Shown here: piece by piece, positions 8,977 to 42,540 of the stretch | Numbering within the stretch: position 1 is the stretch's first letter | Layout: every line of letters starts with the position of its first letter | Source of the DNA: a virus | Lineage: Duplodnaviria; Caudoviricetes | Virus record (IMG/VR): IMGVR_UViG_3300020045_005439 | Location: 1-44,189 of that record | Direction: 5' to 3' (one strand) | Length of the DNA stretch: 44,189 nt | Translations under genes and position numbers: made by a program | The notes under the pieces: generated by a model | Database searches by the model: none | What the model was told of the DNA's origin: nothing | Seen by the model: the letters and a program-made list of their open reading frames with translations, nothing else

Positions 8977-10766
8977 TGGCTAACTGGCGAGTAAGTTTAG
9001 GATTAACAACAACAGGAAGTAATTTAGTTACTAATGGGACATTTACAGGTGGATTAGCTGGATGGACAGCAGATGCAGGATGGACAGGAGTTGGTAATAT
9101 AGCAGATTTTACTCCTGGTGGTGGAGGGGGGCAAGGAGATTTAAGTCAAGCAAGTGTATTTGAAGTAGGTAAAAGATATAGAGTTACTTTTGATAATTTA
9201 GATGCCTTAACAGGAGTAGATACAATAGGTATTAGATTTGGTGATTTTGGATTTGGTCTCTTACAGCCAGGTATAGAAACTGTAACGCAAGAACATAGGG
9301 TTTTATCTGGAACATCAATATCATTTCATGCCGTAGCTTCTGGTGCTACTTCTGTTCAAATAGATAATGTAGTAGTTTTGGAATTAGATTATAATACCCC
9401 AATAACAGACCAACCCATAGGATTAGATGAAGCTAAAATAGTAGTTCAAAAAGATAGAGATTTGGAAGGGCTTATTACAAAATTTATAACAGAACTTACT
9501 TTTTGGGGTGATGGATATGATTATATAAAAGCTCAATTTGATGATAGTTATTGTAATAAGATTCCTGTTTTGTTTGAATATAAATGTACAGAAACTGCCG
9601 AGTTTGAAAGGTTCTTTGAGGGCCATATATATATAAGTGACTGCACTTTTGATCTGCAAAAATGTATGGTTAAATGTACCGTTGAAGATTCTGGCGGTAG
9701 TCAATTATTACAAAGAAATAAAAATGTTAAAGTATTTGCTGATGCAGCAGATTCTAATGAAACAGGTTTAGTACAGGAAGCCCAAGCCACAATAGATCTA
9801 CATGATAATACAGGCGCATATCCAGCGGGCAGCCCATATAATGATAATGATGGATTTCATGTAGGTAGTTTTTTTAGAACCTGTATTCAGGTTGCCACAG
9901 AATTAGAAGTAGATTGTGATACAGATTATTTTGAGTTAGGTGGAGGCGGTGATTTTGAAGACTTATGTATCATATTAGGTAAATTATTGAGGACAGGAAC
10001 ATTGTCCGCTGAATTTGTAGAACAATCCTCCTATTCTTTTAAAGAGTTCTTTCAGGCGTGCAATTCTGTTTTTAATTTAGGTATACAATCGAAGACGGTT
10101 AATGGTGTTCCTATTATAAAAATAGAACCTAAAGAAGATTTATTTAGCAGTACTTCTATTTTAACATTAGTAGACGTTCCAAATATAAAAGCAGAAGTAA
10201 ATAAAGATTTACTTTTTAAAACTATCTCTATTGGATATTCAGCTAGAAATGTAGATGATGATGATGATAGATTTCAATATGTTACAAATGACACATGTTC
10301 TGATAAAGATTTGAATTTAATAAGCAAATTTGTAGCCCAAAGTATTTTAATAGAAGAATTATTAAATGCTACTATTACAGGTACTGAATATGATAAATAT
10401 ACTTATTTCATTGAATGTACTAATACAGGTGGATTTACTTTTGATTCTACAATTTTTGGAGGGAATGCTTTTAACGGCAATTTAGAGAAAGAGGATAATA
10501 TGTTACGATGGGTAGATACTTTGCCAGCCTCTACATTTAAAAATAGAGATACTGGGGAAGTTATTACAAAGACTAATCCACCCCAAGTAATTATATATAA
10601 ATTTGATTATCCACTTTCTAAAACCCAATTCGATTCAATTAGTGATGTGACTCGCCCGATAACTTTTAGTGGTGCTGGAATTACTACGCCATTGGAAGGG
10701 CATATTTTAAAATTGGAATATAACATTAAAACAGGGTTAACAAGTTTTGAACTCTTATCAGAATAA
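8976..10766 (+). CDS. Tail protein with N-terminal carbohydrate-binding-like (galactose-binding/CBM4-9) domain
   Basis: Follows tape measure; NLVTNGTF...W...IDNVVV jelly-roll signature. Confidence 0.7.
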   Translation: MANWRVSLGLTTTGSNLVTNGTFTGGLAGWTADAGWTGVGNIADFTPGGGGGQGDLSQASVFEVGKRYRVTFDNLDALTGVDTIGIRFGDFGFGLLQPGIETVTQEHRVLSGTSISFHAVASGATSVQIDNVVVLELDYNTPITDQPIGLDEAKIVVQKDRDLEGLITKFITELTFWGDGYDYIKAQFDDSYCNKIPVLFEYKCTETAEFERFFEGHIYISDCTFDLQKCMVKCTVEDSGGSQLLQRNKNVKVFADAADSNETGLVQEAQATIDLHDNTGAYPAGSPYNDNDGFHVGSFFRTCIQVATELEVDCDTDYFELGGGGDFEDLCIILGKLLRTGTLSAEFVEQSSYSFKEFFQACNSVFNLGIQSKTVNGVPIIKIEPKEDLFSSTSILTLVDVPNIKAEVNKDLLFKTISIGYSARNVDDDDDRFQYVTNDTCSDKDLNLISKFVAQSILIEELLNATITGTEYDKYTYFIECTNTGGFTFDSTIFGGNAFNGNLEKEDNMLRWVDTLPASTFKNRDTGEVITKTNPPQVIIYKFDYPLSKTQFDSISDVTRPITFSGAGITTPLEGHILKLEYNIKTGLTSFELLSE

Positions 10767-10772
10767 TTAATT

Positions 10773-12779
10773 ATGAGCTATACTATAATACCAAATCAAG
10801 CATTAAAATTAGTGGGCACAGGCGAAACATCATTTAATGATCTAGCTGCCGAATGTAATTGTACAGGGCAAGATTGGTGTCAGCCTAAAAACCAAGACGA
10901 CAGTACTTCCTTTCAAATTGGGCTAGGGACAATAGATGGCGATAATTTAGTTGCCGATGGTGATTTCGATGGCACTCCTGCTAGTGCATGGACATTAGGA
11001 GGCAATTGGGCAATAGCGGCAGGTGTGGCAACCCATACAGTAGGGGCTGGCGGTGATTTAACACAGGACATGAATAATATTATAGCTATTAATAAATATT
11101 ACTGGTTAATCTTTAGTATTGAAAACGCTTCTGGCACAGGTAATATAGATGTTATTTTAGGTGGGGTTACATTAATAACATTGAATGTTGCGACATATAT
11201 AGGTGATGATACGACATTTAATTTATATAAGATTTTCGCAGTAGGAGAGATAACAGATCAGGATTTAATATTTAGAGCAACAGGGGCAGCAAGCGGATTT
11301 AATATAGACGATGTAGTATTATTTGAATTATGTGCAGGACAATTTTATATACAAAATATACAGACAGATGAAATACCAAATGTGTTTAATGCTGATGCCA
11401 CAGAGATAGATCGTTTTGAAGAAGCCGCACTTATTACATTTGACTTCCTAAATACCCCTGATGAAGGCTGCTATAAAATATGTATGTTATGTGGGCCAGA
11501 TAACGAATTTACAGCAGGAGATTTTGGAACACATCAAGATAATGTTACAGGATTAACATCCGACAATCCAAATACAGTACAGGCTAATCCGGTACGATCA
11601 ACAACAGAAAAAAGAACAGGTTTATCAAGTGCATTTGTAGAATTTAAAGCAGCTGCACCAGTAGATGGAGATATGTATATAGCTAATATAACATTAGAAG
11701 CAAATACCAGATATACTGCCTATGGATGGATTTATAACACAGATTCAGCCGAAGCAGATCTTGTTAGAATAGGATTTGAAGTACAAAATATGTCTGGGTT
11801 AACAGGACTATTACCTATGAGTACTTTTAATGATGAACTAGGATCTGATTTCCAAATGATATGTTTAAAATTCACAACAGGTACAGATATATCAGGTCAG
11901 CTTACTATTGCTGCTGATGTAGAAAATGCAGCCGTTTTGGCAGGAGATGATTATTATATTGATGATGTTTCCATTGTTAAAGGAAGTGAAACAATAAAGG
12001 ACGGGGGACTTAATCAAGATTATACTTTTTGGACAACCACAGGTGATGTTGAGATGGTAGATGGAATTGCTAATTTTGGGGCAGGAACAAACAATACAAT
12101 GAGCCAAACTTTAACTAGCCCAATAGCAAATACAATATATAAATTTTCAATTCGTGTAATTGAAATAACAGGTACATTAACCGTAAATTTATTCAATACT
12201 ACGTTTGATATAACCGAAGCGGGTGATTATTTTAGATACCTAGCATCTCCCGATGATGTAACAGGAGCTGAATTAGAATTTTCTACATTAATAGGAACTA
12301 ATCTAAGTATAAATGATATTTCTGTTATAGATGTTGCTCCTGAATTTTGTTCTGAATGTTTAAATGTAAAAACAGATTGGGGTTGTTCCACTAATATATT
12401 ATCATGGACAAATAATGAAACCGCTTTTGGAATAGACTATGAAAACTTTGTTTATACTCAATTTATGAGGTTGGAATCCAAACTATGGAAACCTAAATAC
12501 ATTACCGAGCAAGAAGATTTTACAGATAATGCAGGTAGCCGTACCTTATTATGGGCGAGAAGCAGAAAGCAATTTGACCTTACCATTAGAGATGTTCCAG
12601 AATATATCCATGATGCTTTGCGGCTAGGAGTGATACACGATACTTTTAATATAGAAGGAGAGCAATATATAAAATTAGAGGGCGATTACGAGCCTGAATG
12701 GAGAAACAGCTCATTGACAGCACCAATTACTATTGAAGTAACTCCTCAAACTGAGGATATGCAGAATAGTAATTGTTAG
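10773..12779 (+). CDS. Tail/baseplate protein with about three CBM-like domains
   Basis: NLVADGDF..., IDDVVL, YYIDDVSI, INDISV repeated jelly-roll termini; acidic. Confidence 0.7.
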   Translation: MSYTIIPNQALKLVGTGETSFNDLAAECNCTGQDWCQPKNQDDSTSFQIGLGTIDGDNLVADGDFDGTPASAWTLGGNWAIAAGVATHTVGAGGDLTQDMNNIIAINKYYWLIFSIENASGTGNIDVILGGVTLITLNVATYIGDDTTFNLYKIFAVGEITDQDLIFRATGAASGFNIDDVVLFELCAGQFYIQNIQTDEIPNVFNADATEIDRFEEAALITFDFLNTPDEGCYKICMLCGPDNEFTAGDFGTHQDNVTGLTSDNPNTVQANPVRSTTEKRTGLSSAFVEFKAAAPVDGDMYIANITLEANTRYTAYGWIYNTDSAEADLVRIGFEVQNMSGLTGLLPMSTFNDELGSDFQMICLKFTTGTDISGQLTIAADVENAAVLAGDDYYIDDVSIVKGSETIKDGGLNQDYTFWTTTGDVEMVDGIANFGAGTNNTMSQTLTSPIANTIYKFSIRVIEITGTLTVNLFNTTFDITEAGDYFRYLASPDDVTGAELEFSTLIGTNLSINDISVIDVAPEFCSECLNVKTDWGCSTNILSWTNNETAFGIDYENFVYTQFMRLESKLWKPKYITEQEDFTDNAGSRTLLWARSRKQFDLTIRDVPEYIHDALRLGVIHDTFNIEGEQYIKLEGDYEPEWRNSSLTAPITIEVTPQTEDMQNSNC

Positions 12780-13529: not shown

Positions 13530-14447
13530 ATGGAAAAAGGAATAACATTACTAGCATTACATGATCAGACTTATGGATGGTGGGCATATAATATGGCTAT
13601 ATCCATAAAGTATCTGAATCCTAAACTTACTATACAGTTAGTTACTGACAAATTAGTTTTGGATGGACTTACCAAATGGCATTTAAAGAAATTCGATATA
13701 ATAACTAAAATAACAGACAAACATAAACAAACTAAAGACCAGTATAACGGAAGGCAATTGCAGTTTGATCCTGCCTTTGCTAAAATGAACCTATACAAGT
13801 ATATAGCCTTTGACCATACTATTTATTTAGATGTCGATGGGTTATGTGTAAGGGATTTAGAATTTCTATTTCAGGAATGTATAGGAATGGAAGGGGGTTA
13901 TTATACAGACCTTATAAACAAAGGTAGATTAGGAGGAACCTTTAAAGATATGGCATGGGCAACACCAGATATAATATGGGAGAAATTTAAATTAGATAAA
14001 GACGCTGTAATGCCATTTACTAATAGCAGTTTTCAATACATAAAAAAATGTACTGAGACCGAGATACTATTTGATACTATTTTAGACTGCTATAATAGTA
14101 GGTTTGAATTAAAAGACTTAAAACATACATGGGGCAAAGGGCAGCCAGACGAGTTGTATTTGAATATAGCATTAACCAAATGTAATATAATGCCTGTGCT
14201 ACCGCTAACAAAGAAGGTGGTAGCATTACGGAATAAAGCAGTTAAGGGTATGGATGACATAACCAAAGAATCCTTTATACTTGGGTTATATGGTATTAAG
14301 AATATACATACGCATACTACAATGGTAGATTTAGCAGAAGTATATCTAAGGAAGATTTATAAAGACATGCTAGATATGGACAATTCATTTAAAGTAAAAT
14401 ATCTAATGAATTTCAAGTATCTAAAAAAGAATAGAGATAACAGATGA
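13530..14447 (+). CDS. GT-A fold glycosyltransferase (GT8-like)
   Basis: FAKMNLY..FDHTIYLDVD (DxD), NSS, QPDE motifs. Confidence 0.8.
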   Translation: MEKGITLLALHDQTYGWWAYNMAISIKYLNPKLTIQLVTDKLVLDGLTKWHLKKFDIITKITDKHKQTKDQYNGRQLQFDPAFAKMNLYKYIAFDHTIYLDVDGLCVRDLEFLFQECIGMEGGYYTDLINKGRLGGTFKDMAWATPDIIWEKFKLDKDAVMPFTNSSFQYIKKCTETEILFDTILDCYNSRFELKDLKHTWGKGQPDELYLNIALTKCNIMPVLPLTKKVVALRNKAVKGMDDITKESFILGLYGIKNIHTHTTMVDLAEVYLRKIYKDMLDMDNSFKVKYLMNFKYLKKNRDNR

Positions 14448-15154
14448 TTGATGTAGTTATACCTATATATAACATTAAAAAGAGGGGGTTCGATAGGCTG
14501 GATTATATGTTGTATTCACTACATAAACAAGATGTAAGAAAAGCAATAATAGTAGATAGTAGTAATGATGGAGGAGAGCACGAGATAAAACATATTACAA
14601 AAAATTATAATTTTGGACAATATTTACATTTAAGATCACAGGAATTTAATAAACCTAAGTTACTTAACTATGGAATCGGGCAAGCTACTACTGATTATAT
14701 TATGTGCACTGACGTTGACTACATTTTTAGTAGCGATTATATTAGAGTGTGCAAAGTACATAGATCGGAAACTAAAATGTTGTATAAAGAAGTTCAAATG
14801 CTGCCGAAAATGATAATACGGAAAAAGAATATAGACATCTGGCAGTTTCCTAAAACAACGGATAACCCACATAATAAATTAGCTAATGGAGCCTGCCAAT
14901 ATACTACTAGAAAATGGTTTATAGAAAACCCTTATGATGAACGAATGAGTGGCTGGGGAGTAATGGATAATATGAATTGCTATATGGCTAAGAAAAGTGG
15001 GTTAGAAATAGAATGGTTGGATCAGGGTAAGATATTGCATCAATGGCATCAGGTTTATAAACTAAGAACATCACAGAGCCATAAAGACTTTAATAGAAAT
15101 GTGCAAATTTTGCACAACTATAGAAGCGAGAATAACCTACCAAAACTTTTATGA
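14444..15154 (+). CDS. Glycosyltransferase family 2 (GT7-C-like C-terminus)
   Basis: IDVVIPIYN, IIVD, CTDVD, YDERMSGWGVMD, LHQWH. Confidence 0.85.
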   Translation: MIDVVIPIYNIKKRGFDRLDYMLYSLHKQDVRKAIIVDSSNDGGEHEIKHITKNYNFGQYLHLRSQEFNKPKLLNYGIGQATTDYIMCTDVDYIFSSDYIRVCKVHRSETKMLYKEVQMLPKMIIRKKNIDIWQFPKTTDNPHNKLANGACQYTTRKWFIENPYDERMSGWGVMDNMNCYMAKKSGLEIEWLDQGKILHQWHQVYKLRTSQSHKDFNRNVQILHNYRSENNLPKLL

Positions 15155-15711
15155 TATACTGTAACATACCATATTGCAATAAAGAAGAAGGTAAAAATCT
15201 GGGTAAGGCGTATAATCGCTTTATGGCTATACTTCCCAATGATGAAGATTACGCTATATTCCTAGACCATGACGCTATGTTTACAACGTATGAATGGTAT
15301 AAGTATATAGAGATGGTTTTAGATATGCACAAGGATATAGCCTTATTCACAGGAGTAACGAATCGCATTATGTGTCCTTACCAAACAGCCAAGAATATAA
15401 ATGTAGATAGCAATGATATAGAATACCATAGAAAGGTAGGGCAACAATTACAGAAAAAACATGGATTAGAAGTAACAGATATAACAAATGAAAAAGTACG
15501 GATAAGCGGTGTTCTAATGATATTGCAAAAGAGAGCATGGAAAAAATCAGGAGGCTTTATAGAGAAAGGGATTTTAGGAGTAGACAATGAAATACATTCA
15601 GCATTGAGGAAGGTAGACGAGAAAGTGTATTTATTGAAAGGCTTGTATGTGTATCACTACTATTCAAATTTTAATATGAGAGGGCAAAGAGATATTAAGC
15701 ATTTACTATGA
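15151..15711 (+). CDS. GT-A fold glycosyltransferase (GT2-like)
   Basis: NLGKAYN, FLDHDAMF (DxD), GGF...LGVD, YVYHYY. Confidence 0.8.
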   Translation: MIYCNIPYCNKEEGKNLGKAYNRFMAILPNDEDYAIFLDHDAMFTTYEWYKYIEMVLDMHKDIALFTGVTNRIMCPYQTAKNINVDSNDIEYHRKVGQQLQKKHGLEVTDITNEKVRISGVLMILQKRAWKKSGGFIEKGILGVDNEIHSALRKVDEKVYLLKGLYVYHYYSNFNMRGQRDIKHLL

Positions 15712-16478
15712 AAATATTAAATACAACAGATAGTCTAAAGGCTTTAACTGAAAGGTTACAACATAGCGATAATGTTACTTATACACGTTTTGGAGATGGC
15801 GATGTATTCCTTACTCATGGCAAAAATCATGGAGGTAAAAACTTCTATAATAAAAAGACAGGTATTAACCAGTTTCCTTTTAATGAAAGCTTACAAAACG
15901 ATTTGAGAGAGGCATTAAAAATAATAGACGAGAATTACATGATAGCTATGACAGGCTGCTATGATAGGGAGCAAGGCATGGATAGAGATATATTAGAACC
16001 CTTTCGATTTTGTTCTAAAATAGAACATATCATTGTTCAGTATTGTAACAGAGAGGTATTTTATAATCCTGTATTATTCCACTATCTGGCGTTATTTAAA
16101 CACAATGTATTTAGGGATTTTATAGATAAATATGTAAAGCCCCATAAGAAATTCTTTATAGGTTCAACCCCTAAAGAGATAGCAGAGAAAATGATAGGCC
16201 ATATAGACTATTATATACAAGTGCCTCCCAATGGTGTATTTAACAATGTGGATAAATGGTATCCCAAAATACTAGAGATTTACTACCATGAAGATTTTAA
16301 AGTAATGATTCCTAATTGCGGGTATGCCACAAGAGTTATCCAGAAAAGATTGTGGTTAGAGAATAAAAGGAATATTTGGAATATAGATATAGGAAGCGTA
16401 TTCGATTCTTTATGGAATAACCAATCCAGAACATGGTTAAGAAAAAAAGGTGATTGCATAGCTAAAAAATATACATGA
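15708..16478 (+). CDS. GT-D fold (DUF1792-like) glycosyltransferase, paralog 1
   Basis: YTRFGDGD and IDIGSVFD motifs. Confidence 0.7.
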   Translation: MKILNTTDSLKALTERLQHSDNVTYTRFGDGDVFLTHGKNHGGKNFYNKKTGINQFPFNESLQNDLREALKIIDENYMIAMTGCYDREQGMDRDILEPFRFCSKIEHIIVQYCNREVFYNPVLFHYLALFKHNVFRDFIDKYVKPHKKFFIGSTPKEIAEKMIGHIDYYIQVPPNGVFNNVDKWYPKILEIYYHEDFKVMIPNCGYATRVIQKRLWLENKRNIWNIDIGSVFDSLWNNQSRTWLRKKGDCIAKKYT

Positions 16479-17245
16479 TTAAAATATATAATACTACCCA
16501 GAGTTTAAAAATGATAACGGATGCTTTAGATAAGCACGATAAAGTATTTTATACACGCTATGGCGATAATGATATTATGATGCTTACAGGTACAGACTTC
16601 TATAACAAGCCATTAGAGAATAGGAAGTATGGAGGCAATAAAACACAATGGTCAGAGGCTTTACAGAAAGAACTTTATACGGCATTTGCAATAAAAGACC
16701 CATGCTATTTAAAAGGTGTAAGTTATAATTGGGAGTTAGAGCCAGGCATGCGAGAAGGATTATTTGCCAGCTTTAATTATAAAGGAGCCTTAAGAGATAA
16801 GTTAAGAACTATAACCAAAGAAGATAAATTTCTTATCCCTGTATTATTTCACTATTTAATAGTATTTAAACCCGATATATTTCAGAACTTTATAAATAAA
16901 TATATTAAACCATATAAGAAGTTATTTATAGGTTGTATAGATAAAGACATTGTAGAAAGGGTGGTGGGTAAAATAGATTATTACGTACAAACACCAGAGA
17001 TAACAGCGTATAATGATATAAATAATTGGTGGCCTAAAGTAGAAGAAGCATTACAAGACAAAAAACTAAAAGTGGTATTGCCTAATTGTGGACAAAGCAG
17101 CCGAGTAATACAGGGAAGATTATGGAGCAAAGATTTGAAGATACGATCCTTAGACTTAGGAAGTATCTTCGATCCAATAGCAGGGAAGCCCACTAGAACA
17201 TGCTGGAAAATGGCTGGCAATTTAGTAAAAATGCGTTATCCATGA
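16475..17245 (+). CDS. GT-D fold (DUF1792-like) glycosyltransferase, paralog 2
   Basis: YTRYGDND and LDLGSIFD motifs; colinear with paralog 1 (both 256 aa). Confidence 0.7.
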   Translation: MIKIYNTTQSLKMITDALDKHDKVFYTRYGDNDIMMLTGTDFYNKPLENRKYGGNKTQWSEALQKELYTAFAIKDPCYLKGVSYNWELEPGMREGLFASFNYKGALRDKLRTITKEDKFLIPVLFHYLIVFKPDIFQNFINKYIKPYKKLFIGCIDKDIVERVVGKIDYYVQTPEITAYNDINNWWPKVEEALQDKKLKVVLPNCGQSSRVIQGRLWSKDLKIRSLDLGSIFDPIAGKPTRTCWKMAGNLVKMRYP

Positions 17246-17877
17246 GAATATTTATAACAGGCTGTGCAAAGAGTGGAACTACATTGTTAGCTAGGTTATT
17301 TAGCTATTTTGAAAACGTATATGTGCATCCTAAAGAGATAAATGTTTTTAACAGCAAAGAATTAAAAGCAAAAGAAAAGCATATAATATCTAAGCGAAAC
17401 CAGAAAACAATATTCAGCCAAACGCTATATGATTATGAGATGGGCGAGCAATTATATTTTATTAAAAAAAACAATATAAAAGTTATCAATGTCGTAAGAG
17501 ATGGGCGAGACGTATTACCGTCATTGTTGAATGAGGCTAAATATGATAGGTGGATAGATGCCATAGATCAGAGTATTAAATATAGTAGATATATAGATTA
17601 CCAGATTAAATATGAGGATCTGGTTAATAGGCCAGACGAAGTACAAAAAGAATTGGAGTTGAAATACGGCTTAAAGCCATTGCGTAAATTCTCTCAGTAT
17701 CCTGAGCAAATAGATAAACAGTTGTTTAAAGAAGTGAAAAGAGATGGCAATAAATATTCGCTCAGGCCGATAGATAAAAAGTCATTGAAAAAGAATCTTT
17801 GGTTTTATAAAAGCGTATTGAATCCTAATCAGGTCAGGCAGATGGATTGGCTACTAAAAAAACTTAACTATCTATGA
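17242..17877 (+). CDS. Sulfotransferase (PAPS-dependent)
   Basis: IFITGCAKSGTTLL 5'-PSB loop, VVRDGRDV 3'-PB, IKYEDLV; start moved to the ATGA overlap at 17242. Confidence 0.85.
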   Translation: MRIFITGCAKSGTTLLARLFSYFENVYVHPKEINVFNSKELKAKEKHIISKRNQKTIFSQTLYDYEMGEQLYFIKKNNIKVINVVRDGRDVLPSLLNEAKYDRWIDAIDQSIKYSRYIDYQIKYEDLVNRPDEVQKELELKYGLKPLRKFSQYPEQIDKQLFKEVKRDGNKYSLRPIDKKSLKKNLWFYKSVLNPNQVRQMDWLLKKLNYL

Positions 17878-18422
17878 CTTATAATGTTGTGGAGTATTGG
17901 GACAACAGGGGTAATATAACAAAGGGCGGTAGCCTTTCAGATAAAGAACAGGATTTTATTTTTGAATATGTATATGGTAAAGAAAAGTTATTGGACTTCG
18001 GTTGTGGAAAAGGGCGGTTATTTAATTTGTATCAAACAAATAGGGAGGTGTATGGGTATGATATAACGACCAACCACTCAGACCATTTAAGGGCTATGTC
18101 GGCTAAATATAGGTTGGATTTTAAATTTGTTAAAGGCGAATTAGATTATGAGGTGCTACCTTTTAGAGATCAATTTTTCGATGTGTGTATATGCAGTGAA
18201 GTCTTATTACACCAGTATCCTAATCAGGTAGGAAAAATAATGAATGAATTAGCAAGGGTATCTAAAAAAGTGGCATGTATAACAGCTCTATATAGAGAGG
18301 ATCAAATACCTGCTTCGCATTGCTTTGATCATAATTATATAGATATTTGTGATATATATAAGTTAAAATTATTAAATTATCAAATATATAATAACAGAAT
18401 TTTATTTGCATATACAAAATGA
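17874..18422 (+). CDS. Class I SAM-dependent methyltransferase (Methyltransf_11-like)
   Basis: LLDFGCGKG, LPFRDQFFDV, EVLLH, ELARV. Confidence 0.85.
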   Translation: MTYNVVEYWDNRGNITKGGSLSDKEQDFIFEYVYGKEKLLDFGCGKGRLFNLYQTNREVYGYDITTNHSDHLRAMSAKYRLDFKFVKGELDYEVLPFRDQFFDVCICSEVLLHQYPNQVGKIMNELARVSKKVACITALYREDQIPASHCFDHNYIDICDIYKLKLLNYQIYNNRILFAYTK

Positions 18423-19120
18423 TAGTCGCTAGTTTAGCCACATTACCAGAGAGAGAAAGAGAGCTTAAAAATGCTTTAGAATCTATTTACCCTTATGCAG
18501 ATAAGATATATGTAGCATTAAATAAGTATGAGAACAAGCCTAAATGGTTAAAGGAAAGTCCACTAGGAGATAAAATAGAATCTAAGATTTTGGATAATAG
18601 CACAGGTGATGCCGCCAAATTTTATTTTGTTGATAAGTTAGTAGAACCATGTTATCATTTTGTATGTGACGATGATATCGTATATACAAAAGAGTATTTT
18701 TTATATATGATAGAAAACATAGAGCGATTTAAACGCAAAGCACTAATAACCATACAGGGGCGCATAATTCCTAAAACACCTATTAAAAGCTATTACAGAA
18801 AAGGTACATTGAATATAAGCAGGGCGAGATTTGGCCAGACAAATGATATTCAATTACATATACCTGGCACACATGTATTGGCATATCATACCGATACCAT
18901 AAAGTTTAATTATGCAGATTTTAAGCTGCCTAATATGGCGGATATATGGGTTGGTATTATAGCGCAAAAACATAGAGTGCCTATCATGTCTTTAAAACAC
19001 GATAGTAATTTAATAGGTTATCAACATGTAGATGGGACAATATTTAGAAGGTCATATAAAAATGATAGGTTACAGACCGACGAGATCAATAAAATAAATT
19101 GGACGTTTCCCTCTTTATGA
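18419..19120 (+). CDS. GT-A fold glycosyltransferase
   Basis: ASLATLPER, GDAAKF, VCDDDIVY, NMADIW. Confidence 0.8.
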   Translation: MIVASLATLPERERELKNALESIYPYADKIYVALNKYENKPKWLKESPLGDKIESKILDNSTGDAAKFYFVDKLVEPCYHFVCDDDIVYTKEYFLYMIENIERFKRKALITIQGRIIPKTPIKSYYRKGTLNISRARFGQTNDIQLHIPGTHVLAYHTDTIKFNYADFKLPNMADIWVGIIAQKHRVPIMSLKHDSNLIGYQHVDGTIFRRSYKNDRLQTDEINKINWTFPSL

Positions 19121-19866
19121 AAGATTATAGGTTAAAAAATATACAGGATGGGATTGTAAACCAATTCAAGAAAGAAGGGGAACTGCCTATTGATATTTGT
19201 ATAGCCACACATAAGCGACAAACGTATTTAGAACGTTGTGTATATAGCATTATAGCATCGACAACGATACCACATAGAATATACGTTATAGACGATTTTA
19301 GTAATGACGAATGGCAATCTATATGGTTGCAGAATATGAAAGCCAGAGGACTTATATACGAAGTAATAACCAACAAAGAAAATCTAGGCACTGCAAAGAC
19401 TTTCAATAAAGTGATTAATGTATCTACATCAAAAGTATTTGTAATGGTTAATGACGATATGTTTTTTCATAGATATTGGGATATGGCTTGCCTAGATATT
19501 TATAATGAATTTAAAGACTGTGGTATTGTTAGCTTCTATGATTACACTAGACTTAATTTAGATGAAGGCTCAGAAAACTGCAACAATTATGTGAAGAAGG
19601 TCGTAAGAACAGGACTAGGGGCAAGTATGGTAAATAGAAAAGTATTTACGATGAATAAAGGCTTTCACCTGCCAGATCACCAGAAGATGGGATTCTTGGC
19701 TTCTAACTTTTGTTATGCAGCCAATAAGCAAGATGGCAGATCTAAACATTATGTAACTATACCAAGCTATGCCTCACACATGGATTTGCCTAAAAGCAAA
19801 ATGAACGAAAGAGAGTTTTATGAAACCACAGGGTATAATGAATTTAGACGTAAGCATAAAAAATAA
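19117..19866 (+). CDS. Glycosyltransferase family 2
   Basis: IDICIATHKR, VIDDFS, ENLG, VNDDM; start moved to the ATGA overlap at 19117. Confidence 0.85.
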   Translation: MKDYRLKNIQDGIVNQFKKEGELPIDICIATHKRQTYLERCVYSIIASTTIPHRIYVIDDFSNDEWQSIWLQNMKARGLIYEVITNKENLGTAKTFNKVINVSTSKVFVMVNDDMFFHRYWDMACLDIYNEFKDCGIVSFYDYTRLNLDEGSENCNNYVKKVVRTGLGASMVNRKVFTMNKGFHLPDHQKMGFLASNFCYAANKQDGRSKHYVTIPSYASHMDLPKSKMNEREFYETTGYNEFRRKHKK

Positions 19867-23376: not shown

Positions 23377-24789
23377 ATGAGCGTACAAATAGTCGAAAGC
23401 GAAGCAACCATTAATTTGACCATTAATGGTGTTACCAATACATTAAATAAGTCAGAATTAGAATTAAGTGTCAGCGGAAATTATGTAAATTTTATAAGCG
23501 ATGCAAAGACCTATCAAATTGCTTATACAACAGTATCACGTCCAAACTACGCAAGTGCAGAATCATTGCGTAGTGCAGTACAAGCAATGATAGATAATGC
23601 TGTTTTGACGGCAGATGTAGCAGCTTTGCAGGTTGATGTGGATACGATAGCAGCAAGAACAGTAACTATTAATACTAATGTTAGTGATGTAGAAGCATTG
23701 GTTAATACTATAAATGGCAATGTTAATGACGTTGAGACTAAGGTAGATACCTTAACAACTAATTTAGCAACCGCCAATGGTAATATTAACGACACAGAAA
23801 CTAAAGTTGATACGTTAACTACAAATTTAGCCACTGCAAACACCAATATAAATACAGCCAATACTACTCTGACGACTATTAATGGCAATGTCAATGATAC
23901 CGAAACAAAGGTGGATACTCTTACAACAAACTTAGCTACCGCCAATGCTAATATAGTAACGATTAACTCAACGGCTAATGATATTAATACACTACTTAAT
24001 ACAGTAAATGGAAATGTAAATGATACAGAGACTAAGGTAGACACATTGACAACCAACTTGGCTACGGCTAACGGTAATATCAATGATACTGAGACTAAAG
24101 TAGATACCCTTACTACAAATCTTGCTACTGCCAATGGCAACATCAATGACATAGAGACTAAGGTCGATACGTTAACTACAAACCTAGCGACAGCTAACGG
24201 TAATATAAATGATACAGAAACGAAAGTAGATACGCTAACAACTAATTTAGCAACGGCAAATACAAATATTTCTGATATAGAAACAATCGTAAATAAGGCT
24301 TCTTATGCAGATGATACTACTGTTTCAAAAGCAATTACACTAGATGCTGGTATAACGACAGCAGATACTAAGAATCTATTTACCGTTACAGGCACATGCT
24401 TGGTAAAACGTATCTATGGAGTAATTACAACAGATACAACCCTCACAAATATAACAGGGGTTGGATTACAATTATATGATACAAATACTACTACGGCAAT
24501 AGATAATGGAGCATTGACAGTAAATGCACCAGGAGCAAATACGGTCATGTTAAAAGTAGAAGGCAGTGCAACGAACCTAGCGCATTTAGCAGGCACAGCA
24601 CAAGGATTTGATGAAGGCGGGTTAGGATCGGATGAATATTTTTATCCTTTTTTAGTAAAAGGAAGTACAGCCGTAACAACTTATATACGATTCAAATATA
24701 CAACCACAACAGAGGCAGCGAATGGAGCGATGACTTGGTATTGTATCTATGAGCCTATAAGTCCGAATGGAGCACTAGCAGCAGCGTAA
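23377..24789 (+). CDS. Thr/Asn-rich coiled-coil fibre protein (putative head or collar fibre)
   Basis: Seven copies of a 21-aa unit NGN(I/V)ND(T/V/I)ETKVDTLTTNLATA in heptad register, flanked by globular N- and C-domains. Confidence 0.7.
   Translation: MSVQIVESEATINLTINGVTNTLNKSELELSVSGNYVNFISDAKTYQIAYTTVSRPNYASAESLRSAVQAMIDNAVLTADVAALQVDVDTIAARTVTINTNVSDVEALVNTINGNVNDVETKVDTLTTNLATANGNINDTETKVDTLTTNLATANTNINTANTTLTTINGNVNDTETKVDTLTTNLATANANIVTINSTANDINTLLNTVNGNVNDTETKVDTLTTNLATANGNINDTETKVDTLTTNLATANGNINDIETKVDTLTTNLATANGNINDTETKVDTLTTNLATANTNISDIETIVNKASYADDTTVSKAITLDAGITTADTKNLFTVTGTCLVKRIYGVITTDTTLTNITGVGLQLYDTNTTTAIDNGALTVNAPGANTVMLKVEGSATNLAHLAGTAQGFDEGGLGSDEYFYPFLVKGSTAVTTYIRFKYTTTTEAANGAMTWYCIYEPISPNGALAAA
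23713..24261 (+). repeat. 63-bp/21-aa coding repeat, 7 copies, synonymously diverged
   Basis: ETKVDTLTTNLATAN is identical in protein 7 times with different codons in each copy. Confidence 0.9.
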
Positions 24790-34966: not shown

Positions 34967-35032
34967 ATGACAAGAGAAGATTTTATAAAACTCTACTGCG
35001 AAAAATCTAAAATATGGCAAAAGAGATTATAA
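34967..35032 (+). pseudogene. Probable truncated gene interrupted by the cassette array
   Basis: MTREDFIKLYCEKSKI runs into the duplicated block at TAAAAT (35008) and stops 6 codons later. Confidence 0.4.
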
Positions 35033-35247
35033 AAGAAAACGAACTTAATGTGATGTATCATCATACTGGAATAACGAGATTTACAGGATGCCAATGCTTT
35101 TGTGATTGTTCTTGTAATGAAGATTTTAAACCATCTAAATATGATTATTACACCGTTAAAAGAAAGAATAAGAAAACAACCAATCACCAAACATTAGAAG
35201 ATGCAAATGTTCGTTGGAATTTTGTCTGTGCGTTGGCAGGCAATTGA
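35014..35247 (+). CDS. Cys-rich hypothetical protein, copy 1
   Basis: 77 aa, CQCFCDCSC; 75/77 identical to copy 2. Confidence 0.75.
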   Translation: MAKEIIKENELNVMYHHTGITRFTGCQCFCDCSCNEDFKPSKYDYYTVKRKNKKTTNHQTLEDANVRWNFVCALAGN

Positions 35248-35380
35248 AGCTAACGGTCTGCAAATAAATACAGTACGGATATGAAAGATAAAATTGACTT
35301 AATATTTAGTAACCTCAAAAATGAGTGCATAACTGAAAAACAAGCACATCAGCAAGTATTGGATTTGTTTACTGTTATGC
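35248..35380 (+). repeat. attC-like site 1 (loop carries the N-terminus of a CDS)
   Basis: AGCTAAC...GTTATGC; imperfect arms TAACGGT..CAAAT..CAGTAC / GTATTG..ATTTG..ACTGTTA. Confidence 0.65.
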
Positions 35381-35487
35381 CATCGTTGCCACAATCTGAT
35401 ACCTGCCCAAAATGCAGTGCATATGATTGGAGTTACCACGCAGGAATTGAAAAGATGAAATGTGGTGATTGTGGCTATGAGGCATAA
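35281..35487 (+). CDS. Chimeric Zn-ribbon protein spanning a GTT junction
   Basis: 68 aa; CPKC...CGDC; Val codon GTT at 35374; the stop is the TAA of GGCATAAC. Confidence 0.7.
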   Translation: MKDKIDLIFSNLKNECITEKQAHQQVLDLFTVMPSLPQSDTCPKCSAYDWSYHAGIEKMKCGDCGYEA

Positions 35488-35566
35488 CGTTTTGCAGATT
35501 GGCGATCGGTTTGTGAAGCGTTGGCATTGTGCGGTTGGACAAACTGCCGCCAATGTGCTGTTAGCT
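35482..35566 (+). repeat. attC-like site 2
   Basis: GCATAAC..GCA-G-ATTGGCG..GGTTTGT / ACAAACT..CGCCAAT-G-TGC..GTTAGCT, 85 bp. Confidence 0.8.
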
Positions 35567-35610
35567 TTAGTTGCCTTGCGTGGATTTATTAACGAATTAA
35601 ATTTTAAAAT

Positions 35611-35844
35611 ATGGCAAAAGAGATTATAAAAGAAAACGAACTTAATGTGATGTATCATCATACTGGAATAACAAGATTTACAGGATGCCAATGTTTTGGT
35701 GATTGTTCTTGCAATGAAGATTTTAAACCAAGTAAATATGATTATTACACCGTTAAAAGAAAAAACAAGAAAACAACTAATCACCAAACATTAGAAGATG
35801 CAAATGTTCGTTGGGATTTTGTCTGTGCGTTGGCAGGCAATTGA
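35611..35844 (+). CDS. Cys-rich hypothetical protein, copy 2 (cassette B)
   Basis: Inside GTTAGCTTTAGTTGCCT...AGGCAATTGAAGCTAAC (35560-35851). Confidence 0.75.
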   Translation: MAKEIIKENELNVMYHHTGITRFTGCQCFGDCSCNEDFKPSKYDYYTVKRKNKKTTNHQTLEDANVRWDFVCALAGN

Positions 35845-35934
35845 AGCTAACGGCTGCGGCTTAACGAAGTAAAATTTATACCAATGAAAAATATAAAAGA
35901 CATAAATTTTATTTTGTTTAAGCCGATGTTATGT
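35845..35934 (+). repeat. attC-like site 3
   Basis: AGCTAAC..CGGCTTAACGAAGTAAAATTTAT / ATAAATTTTATTTTGTTTAAGCCG..GTTATGT, 90 bp. Confidence 0.8.
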
Positions 35935-35968
35935 TTAGTATTTTTTATCATTTAATTTTTTTTGAGCG

Positions 35969-36499
35969 ATGGCAAACATTATTTTTAATAGAACTTGGGA
36001 AATGCCTAACAGCAACACTTTTGATATTAAGTGCATCAGCAAATTGATACACAAATATTATAAGCCGGAACTGGAAAGCATAGACCCGTTTGCGAACAAA
36101 TGCAAGTTGGCGAAGATTACAAACGACCTGAACCCGGATTATAAAACCGATTTCAATTTAGATGCTGTGGACTTTCTCAAAAGGTTTGCTGACAACTCCA
36201 TTGACTTTGTGTTTTACGACCCGCCATATTCATTGAGGCAAGTAAGTGAGGTTTACAAAAGTGTTGGCAGGGAAGTAACAATGGAAACAACACAAAGCAG
36301 TTGGAGGACAAAGCACATAAATGAGATTAGCCGAATACTTAAACCGGATGGAGTTGTAATGTGCTTTGGTTGGAATAGTAGCGGAGTTGGAATAAAAAGA
36401 GGGATGGAACTGATAGAGGTTTTATTAGTGCCACACGGAGGAAGCCATAACGATACTATTTGCACAGTTGAACGAAAAATTAAAACATTATTTCATTGA
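35969..36499 (+). CDS. Compact N6-adenine/N4-cytosine DNA methyltransferase (cassette C)
   Basis: SIDPFA SAM-binding motif, DFVFYDPPYS catalytic motif, RILKPDG. Confidence 0.85.
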   Translation: MANIIFNRTWEMPNSNTFDIKCISKLIHKYYKPELESIDPFANKCKLAKITNDLNPDYKTDFNLDAVDFLKRFADNSIDFVFYDPPYSLRQVSEVYKSVGREVTMETTQSSWRTKHINEISRILKPDGVVMCFGWNSSGVGIKRGMELIEVLLVPHGGSHNDTICTVERKIKTLFH

Positions 36500-36533
36500 G
36501 CGTTGGCAAAAATTAAATGATAAAAAATATTGA

Positions 36534-36630
36534 ACATAATGGACGGGGCTTGGCGATAGTGCCACCAAGCAACCGATAAAATTCAAGGCACAAAGCTGAT
36601 TGGTGGCATTTTGCCAAGCCCATGTTACCT
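36534..36630 (+). repeat. attC-like site 4 (TAAT variant core)
   Basis: ACATAAT..GGGCTTGGCGATAGTGCCACCAA / TTGGTGGCATTTTGCCAAGCCC..GTTACCT, 97 bp. Confidence 0.8.
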
Positions 36631-36674
36631 GTCAGTATTTATTAAAAATTAGGGAGGCATTTAAACTAAATAAC

Positions 36675-37037
36675 ATGACAAAGAAATTCACAATGCTACA
36701 ACTGTTCTCCATTTTGGATGGCAGATTATCAACTGAGATTGGAGATGTGTATGAAATGCTAAACCACATTACAGGCGATAGCTTAATGACGCATCATCTG
36801 CCAGTTGCGATGGATTACTTGAAAGAGGTAAATCCCAAATGGTTTCAAGAACTAAAAGCAGAACTTGAAGGAATAAAAAAACTGTGCGGAAACGATTTCC
36901 AAACCTGCATGAATGTGATTAAAGAAAGTTACAATACTGAACATGAAATACCGCAACTTTCTAACGAAGAAAAATCAGGGTTTGGAAAATACATGGTTGA
37001 CAACAGTTTGTTATTGAAGAAACTTAAAACTGCGTAA
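36675..37037 (+). CDS. Hypothetical protein (cassette D), 120 aa
   Basis: ATG 36675 after an A-rich leader; ILDGRL...VYEMLNHITGDSLMTHHLP; inside inverted repeat 36624-37075. Confidence 0.75.
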   Translation: MTKKFTMLQLFSILDGRLSTEIGDVYEMLNHITGDSLMTHHLPVAMDYLKEVNPKWFQELKAELEGIKKLCGNDFQTCMNVIKESYNTEHEIPQLSNEEKSGFGKYMVDNSLLLKKLKTA

Positions 37038-37068
37038 CTGTGCGGTTGGAATTTTTAATAAATATTGC

Positions 37069-37115
37069 AGGTAACACAAAGATTAACGAAATAAAAGTAT
37101 TTAATTGTGTTAAAT
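37069..37115 (+). repeat. Short terminal att-like site 5
   Basis: AGGTAACACAA...TTGTGTTAAAT, 47 bp, abutting a promoter. Confidence 0.5.
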
Positions 37116-37158: not shown

Positions 37159-37419
37159 ATGACAATCAAATTTAAATACGGCTTTATTTATAACGAAGTA
37201 AGATTCGGCTGGCACAAACGAGTACTTTATAGATTGCCTTTTGCAGGTAAAAATAATATGCACTTTGGATTAAAGAAGTTAGAACCATTTATGTTAAATG
37301 GTATATTAACTTACAGATGCAGAAGGGTACACTTAACAGCTAACAGGGTTAAAGAGTTGACCAAAGAGGTGGATTGGGAGGTTATAGTTTGCGAAGATAA
37401 ATTGCATTTACCATTTTAG
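37159..37419 (+). CDS. Hypothetical basic protein
   Basis: 86 aa, FGWHKRVLYRLP. Confidence 0.7.
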   Translation: MTIKFKYGFIYNEVRFGWHKRVLYRLPFAGKNNMHFGLKKLEPFMLNGILTYRCRRVHLTANRVKELTKEVDWEVIVCEDKLHLPF

Positions 37420-41568: not shown

Positions 41569-42540
41569 ATGGATTTAGAATTAAACGAACCACAAGAAAA
41601 CTATGGTACGGGGTGGATAGCTATATATCGTTCTGTTAAAAAGCACTGGATATGGAATGATCCAGTAAAGTTTCAATGGTGGGTATATATATTGATGGAA
41701 GTCAACCACTCAGATAATAAAGTATTAATTGGTAATGAACTAATTATTTGTAAAAGAGGGGAGAGTTTAAAGAGTTTAAGAAGTTGGGCGAAAGAACTAA
41801 GAACAACTCCAAATCGTTTCAGAATTTTTCTACAACTCTTACAAAAAGATTCTATGATTAGTTTAAAAACCGTAACGAAAACAACACACATAACTGTATG
41901 TAACTATGAGAGTTACCAGAAAAGTGGAACAACAATCGATACAAAAACGAAACAAAGACGGTACAACAATCGATACAATAACAGAACAACAATCGATACA
42001 ATAACAGAACATGACCGACCTACAAACAATAATTATAATAATATAAACAATGAGAAGAATGATAACAATTCTAAAAATGAAAACAAAGAAGAAAGAAAAG
42101 CCGAAGAAAAATTTTCATCGCTTAGCAGCGATGTTTCTTTTTCTCCTGATTTAAAAGAAGAAATACGAAAAGATCTGGTAGATATGTATTATGAATGGTC
42201 TCGTGCAAAATTAGGAGTTGAACCGCAATATGATGGTTCGGATGGAAACGCAATGAAGCAGATAATCTCATATTTAAGTTCACAATTTAAAAGCAAAGAA
42301 GAAATAAAACTTAACTGGGGCGTGGTGCTTTCAAGTTACGACAAGTGGGATCCATTCTATAAAAAACAAACCAGAGTAAGGCAAATAAATTCTAATTTAT
42401 CAAATATTATAAACCAAATTAAAAACCATGAACAACTTACCAGAAAAAACACCAGACCAACAGTCGATGATGTACTTGCAGAGTTTAGGAGACAGCAAGC
42501 CGCTAAGTCTGCAAGTAATAGTAACCAAAGCACTATCTAG
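41569..42540 (+). CDS. Replication initiator (lambda O / DnaD-like)
   Basis: GWIAIYRSVKKHWIW N-terminus, winged helix, ITVCNYESYQ, low-complexity linker with internal DNA repeats. Confidence 0.85.
   Translation: MDLELNEPQENYGTGWIAIYRSVKKHWIWNDPVKFQWWVYILMEVNHSDNKVLIGNELIICKRGESLKSLRSWAKELRTTPNRFRIFLQLLQKDSMISLKTVTKTTHITVCNYESYQKSGTTIDTKTKQRRYNNRYNNRTTIDTITEHDRPTNNNYNNINNEKNDNNSKNENKEERKAEEKFSSLSSDVSFSPDLKEEIRKDLVDMYYEWSRAKLGVEPQYDGSDGNAMKQIISYLSSQFKSKEEIKLNWGVVLSSYDKWDPFYKKQTRVRQINSNLSNIINQIKNHEQLTRKNTRPTVDDVLAEFRRQQAAKSASNSNQSTI
41929..42008 (+). repeat. Iterons / putative replication origin
   Basis: ACAACAATCGATACAA at 41929, 41963 and 41986 (last two form a 23-bp tandem), followed by an A-rich tract. 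Confidence 0.8.

Follow-up and report, generated by a model that had tools for sequence, protein, structure and literature searches.

A phage genome that carries the same small gene twice in one array, each copy followed by a different hairpin, raises the question of which neighbouring gene such a hairpin moves with and where the crossover falls. The genome, hereafter the window, is a virus record of 44,189 nt analysed over its whole length; it is rated complete and contains terminase and portal matches. A preliminary description of the locus took it as given that a hairpin travels with the gene upstream of it, as in classical integrons, and read the two copies as evidence for a symmetric system in which hairpins and genes are exchanged separately at the AAC and the GTT end. 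Our analysis indicates that the array is most probably integron-like with its sites inverted relative to the ORFs, so that the mobile unit is a hairpin together with the gene downstream of it.

Results

Layout of the array in the window

The array comprises four TAAC...GTTA hairpins and a set of modules, each with a GTTA start complementary to the TAAC end of the same module, and it closes with a half-site at 37072; all features lie on the plus strand. At the far end a 21-codon ORF stub (34967..35032), probably the remnant of a phage gene that became joined to the array, overlaps the start of the first copy of a gene for a 77-amino-acid Cys-rich protein of unknown function (phrog_34260; copy 1, 35014..35247). 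Copy 1 is a cassette remnant that lacks both an upstream hairpin and the GTTA frame. Hairpin H1 (35251..35377, 127 nt) carries in its loop the start codon of a 68-amino-acid ORF (35281..35487), which spans the GTTA and takes its stop codon, TAA, from the following TAAC; H1 and this ORF form unit 1 (~35254-35487). Unit 2 consists of H2 (35485..35563, 79 nt), which has the arms of a common 49-nt hairpin and a longer loop, and of the complete module of copy 2 (35560..35851, CDS 35611-35844) with complementary ends (GTTA-x ... x'-TAAC). H3 (35848..35931, 84 nt) precedes a DNA methyltransferase module (35928..36540; gene 35969-36499, phrog_11619, E-value 1e-48) that ends in the variant core TAAT, and it runs on into this module also in contigs from other sequencing runs (X1-1, X8-21). 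H4 (36537..36627, 91 nt) precedes the last cassette, a DUF7736 module (36624..37075, gene 36675-37037), and is joined to the same gene in a contig of another run (X2-11, 36544-37075), where identity stops at 37075. The terminal attI-like half-site (37072..37095) is made up of TAAC, a 6-nt spacer and a second box; its fifth base is not G, and it would be the insertion point of new cassettes.

Neither the profile matches of the 62 ORFs nor a six-frame PF00589 search revealed a tyrosine recombinase in the window. With four hairpins in a complete-rated record that has no PF00589 match, the array corresponds to a CALIN, i.e. at least two attC-like sites with no integrase near. Rfam gave no matches, viral scans with H3 gave none either, and the region matches INPHARED phages through the methyltransferase only. 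No excision joint at the core was seen in the contigs of 4 of the 21 listed sequencing runs, contigs being all that was searched. The pattern of the site family occurs at two loci in bacterial genome contigs, one from Chitinophagaceae and one from a Flavobacterium genome; these and the cultured Flavobacteriaceae phages described below suggest that the host belongs to the Bacteroidota.

Elsewhere in the window, glycosyltransferase, sulfotransferase and methyltransferase genes run amid structural genes (13530-19866), a coiled-coil protein gene contains 63-nt tandem repeats (23377-24789), the first ORF contains 45-nt repeats (260-868), and short direct repeats within a DnaD-like gene (41926-42012) possibly mark an origin.

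The two copies are separately acquired alleles

The copies align without gaps at an offset of 597 nt and differ by 10 substitutions in the 234-nt CDS, affecting nine codons; two changes are non-synonymous (C30G and N69D), and Ser41 switches between TCT and AGT. Identity begins at about 35008/35605 and ends at TAACGG (35256/35853), and a repeat search returned 35002-35256 against 35599-35853 with 95% over 255 nt. The hairpins that follow, H1 and H3, are unrelated. In these points the preliminary description was accurate. Copy 1 is joined to the 21-codon stub at a short shared A-rich stretch and has no module start, so that the window by itself shows a difference at the AAC end only.

A gene search returned one viral and seven metagenome loci, of which L006-L008 were weak and were left out of the analysis. 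Two phage homologues at 56-57% identity (L001, 3001-3222; L005, 3001-3204) have no hairpins, and the gene thus also exists outside cassettes. Near-identical copies occur in L002, L003, L004 and contigs of run X6, each followed by another hairpin or by a terminal site. From three metagenome copies, copy 2 is 2, 5 and 4 nt apart and copy 1 is 10, 13 and 12 nt apart. These distances support separate acquisition of the two alleles, as had been proposed, and we rejected duplication in situ because copy 2 is closer to the outside alleles than to copy 1. When the sequence after TAAC was tabulated for the homologues, as had been suggested, six copies showed six different followers; no two have a follower in common, and the pair is not a one-off recombinant. 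Upstream of the gene there are three arm types in five copies: the window and L002 have the same arms with different loops, L003 and X6 have another type, and L004 has a chimera. Atlas matches for the 77-amino-acid protein lay at 0.78 or lower, which is chance level, and the duplicated gene itself appears as ordinary cargo of unknown function.

Hairpins are linked to the downstream gene

Motif scans yielded 357 loci, with flanks fetched for 80 loci only in two of the scans. These loci were picked by arm motifs and parsed with our own script, which rewards G.T pairs; it found arrays in 180 of them (on both strands in one) and gave 396 unique hairpin-module-hairpin triples. Where the downstream 150-nt flank is shared, the hairpin is the same in 39 of 60 pairs, corresponding to 21 same, 11 different and 2 mixed among 34 clusters. 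Where the upstream 150-nt flank is shared, the hairpin is the same in 1 of 50 pairs and 1 of 25 clusters, and random hairpins match in 1.3%. Pairs with both flanks shared (7 and 6) or with the other flank unknown (7 and 1) were dropped from this table. Among 711 near-identical hairpin pairs, 45 have only the downstream flank in common, one only the upstream flank and 665 neither. In 133 of 394 units the start of the main ORF lies within the upstream hairpin, and in none does this ORF reach into the downstream hairpin. Array ends are polar: among the matches listed, a full module lies past the last hairpin in 60 of 92 cases and ahead of the first in 23 of 91, and by eye, again among the matches listed, most of the left-end full modules are preceded by an unparsed hairpin.

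Tabulating both neighbours of the hairpins, the second suggested check, thus did not reveal the expected symmetry (downstream linkage in 21/34 clusters against 1/25 upstream) but did uncover some upstream replacement. The premise that a hairpin travels with the upstream gene is valid for the opposite orientation; here, both this linkage and the isolate junctions described below place it with the downstream gene. Two different followers of the repeated gene are therefore expected, because the hairpins travel with the gene after them. One gene pair retains its downstream hairpin (1 of 8 module pairs), which is of a common 48-nt type. We also considered a crossover at the inner box, with the 3' spacer moving with the gene; by eye, the pairs of the linkage table do not support it.

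Sedentary chromosomal integrons contain homogeneous attC repeats, such as the VCRs of Vibrio, in which the same site sequence accompanies a great variety of genes. Repeats of this kind would also lead one to expect the 665 of 711 pairs with neither flank in common, and a hairpin with changing neighbours, such as the 49-nt hairpin found in 18 listed contexts, therefore does not by itself show a second crossover. Unlike in VCR-type arrays, one gene here also occurs with different hairpins and frames of its own.

Breakpoints in cultured phages lie at the AAC core

Near-isogenic isolates of the phages Freya, Danklef and mumin differ by precise cassette indels, and the breakpoints mapped in these cultured phages are new here. 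We compared Freya 9, 8, 5, 2 and 1 with Freya 10, Freya 5 with 6, Danklef 3/4 with 1, and mumin6-3/6-4 with 6-1. The comparison of Danklef_2 with 1 was left out owing to a nearby substitution, Freya 6 and 10 are related by a replacement, the difference of mumin6-2 lies outside the array, and Freya 3, 4 and 7 lie outside the comparison. Six of the eight indels are from Freya (307, 902, 3198, 4100, 4942 and 472 nt); Danklef contributes a methyltransferase cassette of 781 nt and Flavobacterium phage mumin a cassette of 506 nt. All eight break in windows that hold AAC, of 3, 4, 3, 3, 3 and 7 nt in Freya, 4 nt in Danklef and 7 nt in mumin, and none of the eight breaks at GTT. Thus, as in integrons, the crossover lies within the AAC triplet, here at a resolution of 3-7 nt. 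Each indel takes out a hairpin with its downstream gene or genes. Five end at the terminal site, and since only three are hairpin-by-hairpin events, the share of GTT is poorly bounded by these data. The parser detected no chain in Freya, which has CAAC/GTTG variants, so that the Freya junctions rest on direct comparison; assembly of mixed stocks could have picked out the isolate variants. A 1169-nt unit common to Danklef_1 and Freya_10 and two units common to P12002L/S likewise run from AAC to AAC. Exchange at AAC, for which the preliminary description had argued, is thereby borne out, not as an extra crossover but as the main one of the system.

A short recombinase adjoins the terminal half-site in related arrays

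In three large phage records (G001-G003) the array ends at TAAC and is followed by a half-site and, in the same direction, by the gene of a tyrosine recombinase of 266-270 amino acids, which starts 40-60 nt past the last TAAC. The recombinase is downstream and co-directional in all 16 recombinase-bearing loci (10 records) found among the 180 array loci, and homologues are present in 31 of 61 genomes of the class to which G005 belongs. Related arrays therefore possess what defines attI, a site of entry that is no hairpin and adjoins the integrase gene at its 5' end, and the window has the site without the gene. Right-end sites have no G at the fifth base in 60 of 83 cases, while 498 of 517 hairpins have G.

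The three array-linked recombinases score 151-161 bits against a TIGR02249 cut-off of 265 and thus fall outside the IntI family by this measure. They lack about 48 residues at the IntI insertion, where the match to IntI4 (2a3v) splits (34 residues here versus 82). Polaribacter phage Freya has a like array ahead of an intact recombinase with 36% identity and also encodes RecT. The Danklef integrase is truncated, mumin has no annotated recombinase, and G000 gave no PF00589 match. The 5' end of the integrase gene is replaced or truncated at the array end in L369 (Danklef_1; ~9180-9230 and 10980-11050) and in L195 (G004). A repeated hairpin start continues into what is left of the integrase gene in Danklef, whose isolates nonetheless show cassette loss. 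Genes behind terminal half-sites recur (window 37159-37419; L002 from 4397 onwards), among them integrases and small proteins with shared starts, and the terminal site may travel together with its own gene.

Of 14 bacterial loci fetched, four contain arrays, with the same hairpins and frames next to the same recombinase family. In these chromosomal arrays the ORFs (classical orientation in 8 of 11 modules) and the recombinase gene are on the strand opposite to the phage arrangement. Read on the other strand, the phage layout is the integron layout with every ORF reversed.

Site geometry and the folded strand

The folded sites have the paired AAC/GTT cores and inner inverted repeats of integron sites. 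In 431 of 517 hairpins the ORF strand is the better-folding one, with a median difference of 1.8 kcal/mol, an advantage that may reflect G-rich coding strands. According to the accessible part of the study by Nivina et al. on the strand selectivity of integron attC recombination (PMC5027507), IntI cuts in the 5' AAC of the folded strand; since the isolates break at AAC, the ORF strand would be the one that folds. Its stems contain 215 A.C mismatches versus 155 G.T pairs, which counts against ORF-strand folding. Cassette ends pair over ~14 nt with a fixed G.T, found at frame position 11 in 319 of 396 modules by a parser that itself favours G.T. The 5' spacer is 3-4 nt longer than the 3' spacer in 478 of 513 hairpins; as to extrahelical bases opposite AAC, H3 has one extra base in its 3' arm and the family-wide surplus sits in the 5' spacer. 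Of 347 phage modules, 316 carry the ORF on the folded strand. This departs from the integron order, in which each gene precedes its own attC and the recombined strand is the one that does not carry the ORF.

One fixed 11-nt loop closes short hairpins (64 contexts) as well as empty gene modules, with co-varying arms (L014, L040, L102, L109, L188, L200, L216, L226, L290 and L305). The inner hairpin stem resembles the outer module stem, and the site of a circular cassette may be pseudo-two-fold.

Exchange on the GTT side

The 34 downstream-flank clusters fall into 21 with the hairpin kept, four with the arms kept and the loop changed, two in which the frame has changed too, and seven with the arm replaced. 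In these seven, which include the 77-amino-acid gene, the break lies within 5-13 nt of GTTA and the module is intact from its first base. The shared-suffix background averages 5.5 nt. The claimed exchange at GTT thus holds in so far as upstream hairpins differ in 13 of 34 clusters, seven with a sharp break near GTTA, but it finds no counterpart in the eight isolate indels. A symmetric two-module system is contradicted by the isolate breaks (8 at AAC vs 0 at GTT) and by the clusters exchanged (24/25 vs 7-13/34); an asymmetric one is possible.

Leaders encoded in hairpins are found ahead of various modules, and two phases account for most cases (85 and 41 of 133). In L063, L082, L094, L100, L102 and L110, one leader of ~15 residues is fused in frame to differing downstream sequences. 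Such leaders may mislead protein-family clustering.

Further kinds of exchange are evident in chimeric hairpins joined in the shared 11-nt loop (L004, L037, L041), in L018, which has the same terminal frame as the window module at 35560-35851 round a different ORF, and in L256/L138, where one gene sits in different co-varying frames, a third level of exchange. The frame is not the same in three of ten core pairs, and in one of these three the difference is confined to a single side; the fixed 11-nt loop also closes 11 empty modules. As chimeric loops, frame swaps and empty modules cannot result from core crossover, a crossover at GTT is possible but not required. Rare excision on the opposite strand followed by normal re-insertion would yield the upstream-hairpin replacement; the top strands of classical attC sites recombine at 1000-10,000-fold lower frequency (PMC5027507, accessible part).

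Discussion

In the mechanism that we propose, the ORF-coding strand would fold and be recombined by a short IntI-related tyrosine recombinase, presumably provided in trans, either from the host or from another phage. Strand exchange would occur within the AAC of the TAAC core, where the isolates define a 3-7-nt window and IntI chemistry would predict AA|C as the exact position. A hairpin with its downstream gene would excise and re-insert, as the isolates show, and would enter where the terminal half-site closes the array on its 3' side, as seen in Freya. The two gene copies would be alleles acquired separately, each followed by whichever cassette came next, and the hairpin that once preceded copy 1 would have been lost later. 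Replacement of the hairpin ahead of a gene, as observed in the clusters, would also occur, at a slower pace. The chance that this replacement results from the same enzyme crossing over now and then on the opposite strand, at G|TT, is nearly even; a crossover within shared loops or arms with later rewriting of the arms can be put forward tentatively, and repeated assembly of cassettes from common parts seems unlikely. It is conceivable, if doubtful, that for the recombinase without the insertion the site is pseudo-symmetric and either strand can serve as substrate, the ORF strand in most cases and sometimes the other, the latter leading to excision of a gene plus the next hairpin. If so, one opposite-strand event would give two genes new hairpins and, since about one third of the genes start within the hairpin in fixed phases, new in-frame N-termini as well. 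Together with frame exchange and the empty modules closed by the fixed 11-nt loop, the arrays would then expose the building of cassettes from parts, i.e. cassette genesis, in phages for which cultures exist.

Could hairpins and gene modules instead be independent units that recombine at both cores at similar rates? The many followers and arm types of the 77-amino-acid gene, the 18 listed contexts of the 49-nt hairpin, the leader fused in frame to several modules and the seven of 34 clusters with a replaced arm ahead of an intact module would all fit. Equal rates at both cores are already contradicted, however, by the absence of GTT breaks among the eight isolate indels and by the linkage of 21/34 versus 1/25; the polar array ends and a half-site on the AAC side only further render this explanation highly improbable. 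It is likewise very unlikely that no site-specific enzyme is involved and that RecT-like phage annealing proteins shuffle genes at conserved cores and shared arms. Six of the eight isolate windows span just 3-4 nt, always on AAC, though the GTTA side offers equal shared sequence (TGTTA), and the recombinase gene, with its homologues in half of the 61 genomes mentioned above, lies directly behind the terminal site. Annealing would nevertheless agree with the RecT of Freya, with the hairpins joined in a shared loop, with windows that reach 7 nt and with cassette loss in phages that have no intact recombinase. The classical orientation, a gene with its attC downstream and the present pair as a one-off recombinant or in-situ duplication, is hardly credible: the module pair that keeps its downstream hairpin and the classical modules of the chromosomal arrays speak for it, but the isolate junctions refute it, and the linkage table, the lack of a common follower among six copies and the closeness of copy 2 to outside alleles argue against it as well.

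The inverted arrangement of hairpin plus downstream gene shares with integrons (IntI, attI, attC) a tyrosine recombinase gene beside a non-hairpin entry site, folded AAC/GTT arrays, complementary cassette ends, a single dominant crossover in AAC and one better-folding strand, with a median of 1.8 kcal/mol here compared to an average of 2.12 there (PMC5027507, accessible part). It differs in that the genes would lie on the folded strand, the hairpins precede the genes and new cassettes enter at the 3' end. The recombinase of 266-270 amino acids falls below the TIGR02249 cut-off and has no IntI insertion; moreover, the 5' spacer is longer, the cassette ends pair over ~14 nt with a fixed G.T, and the loops often carry the start of the gene. 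The system works like an integron, yet its integrase and the orientation of its cassettes place it outside that group.

The CALIN reported for Polaribacter phage P12002L (Qi et al. 2023, PMC9892861) is likewise an integrase-less array in a Flavobacteriaceae phage, and its attC1 is a hairpin of the present family before a methyltransferase gene. In the accessible part of that paper both sites are treated as attC with divergent directions, in contrast to our reading; attC1, predicted by HattCI and given as the ORF strand, yielded no product with IntI1, and attC2 recombined. By our own mapping of the strand labels, attC2 would be the terminal half-site read on the other strand. The same part of PMC9892861 contains no description of the family, the inverted unit or the cognate recombinase. 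The word 'integron' is absent from the accessible text of PMC8776804 (Bartlau et al.) and of PMC7077304, the accessible text on IntegronFinder 2.0 (PMC9024848) gives one complete Bacteroidetes integron beyond Chlorobi and Ignavibacteriae, and that of PMC8618304 and PMC12901181 holds nothing further on this point. A search that mostly covered literature outside subscription found no published description of the array family.

Our results fix the unit and the crossover for a widespread, scarcely described integron-like system of Bacteroidota phages. Movement is seen in cultured phage-host pairs, with an intact recombinase in Freya and without one in Danklef and mumin, and the mechanism is thus directly testable. 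Among the genes carried are those for DNA methyltransferases, which are relevant to host range. Should the rarer upstream replacement prove to be genuine crossover on the opposite strand, then leaders and genes would be shuffled independently by an enzyme without the IntI insertion, and the origin of cassettes could be approached through the way in which hairpins, frames and cargo are exchanged in nested fashion. The lasting value lies in the slower residual exchange on the GTTA side and in cultured phages where both exchanges can be tested.
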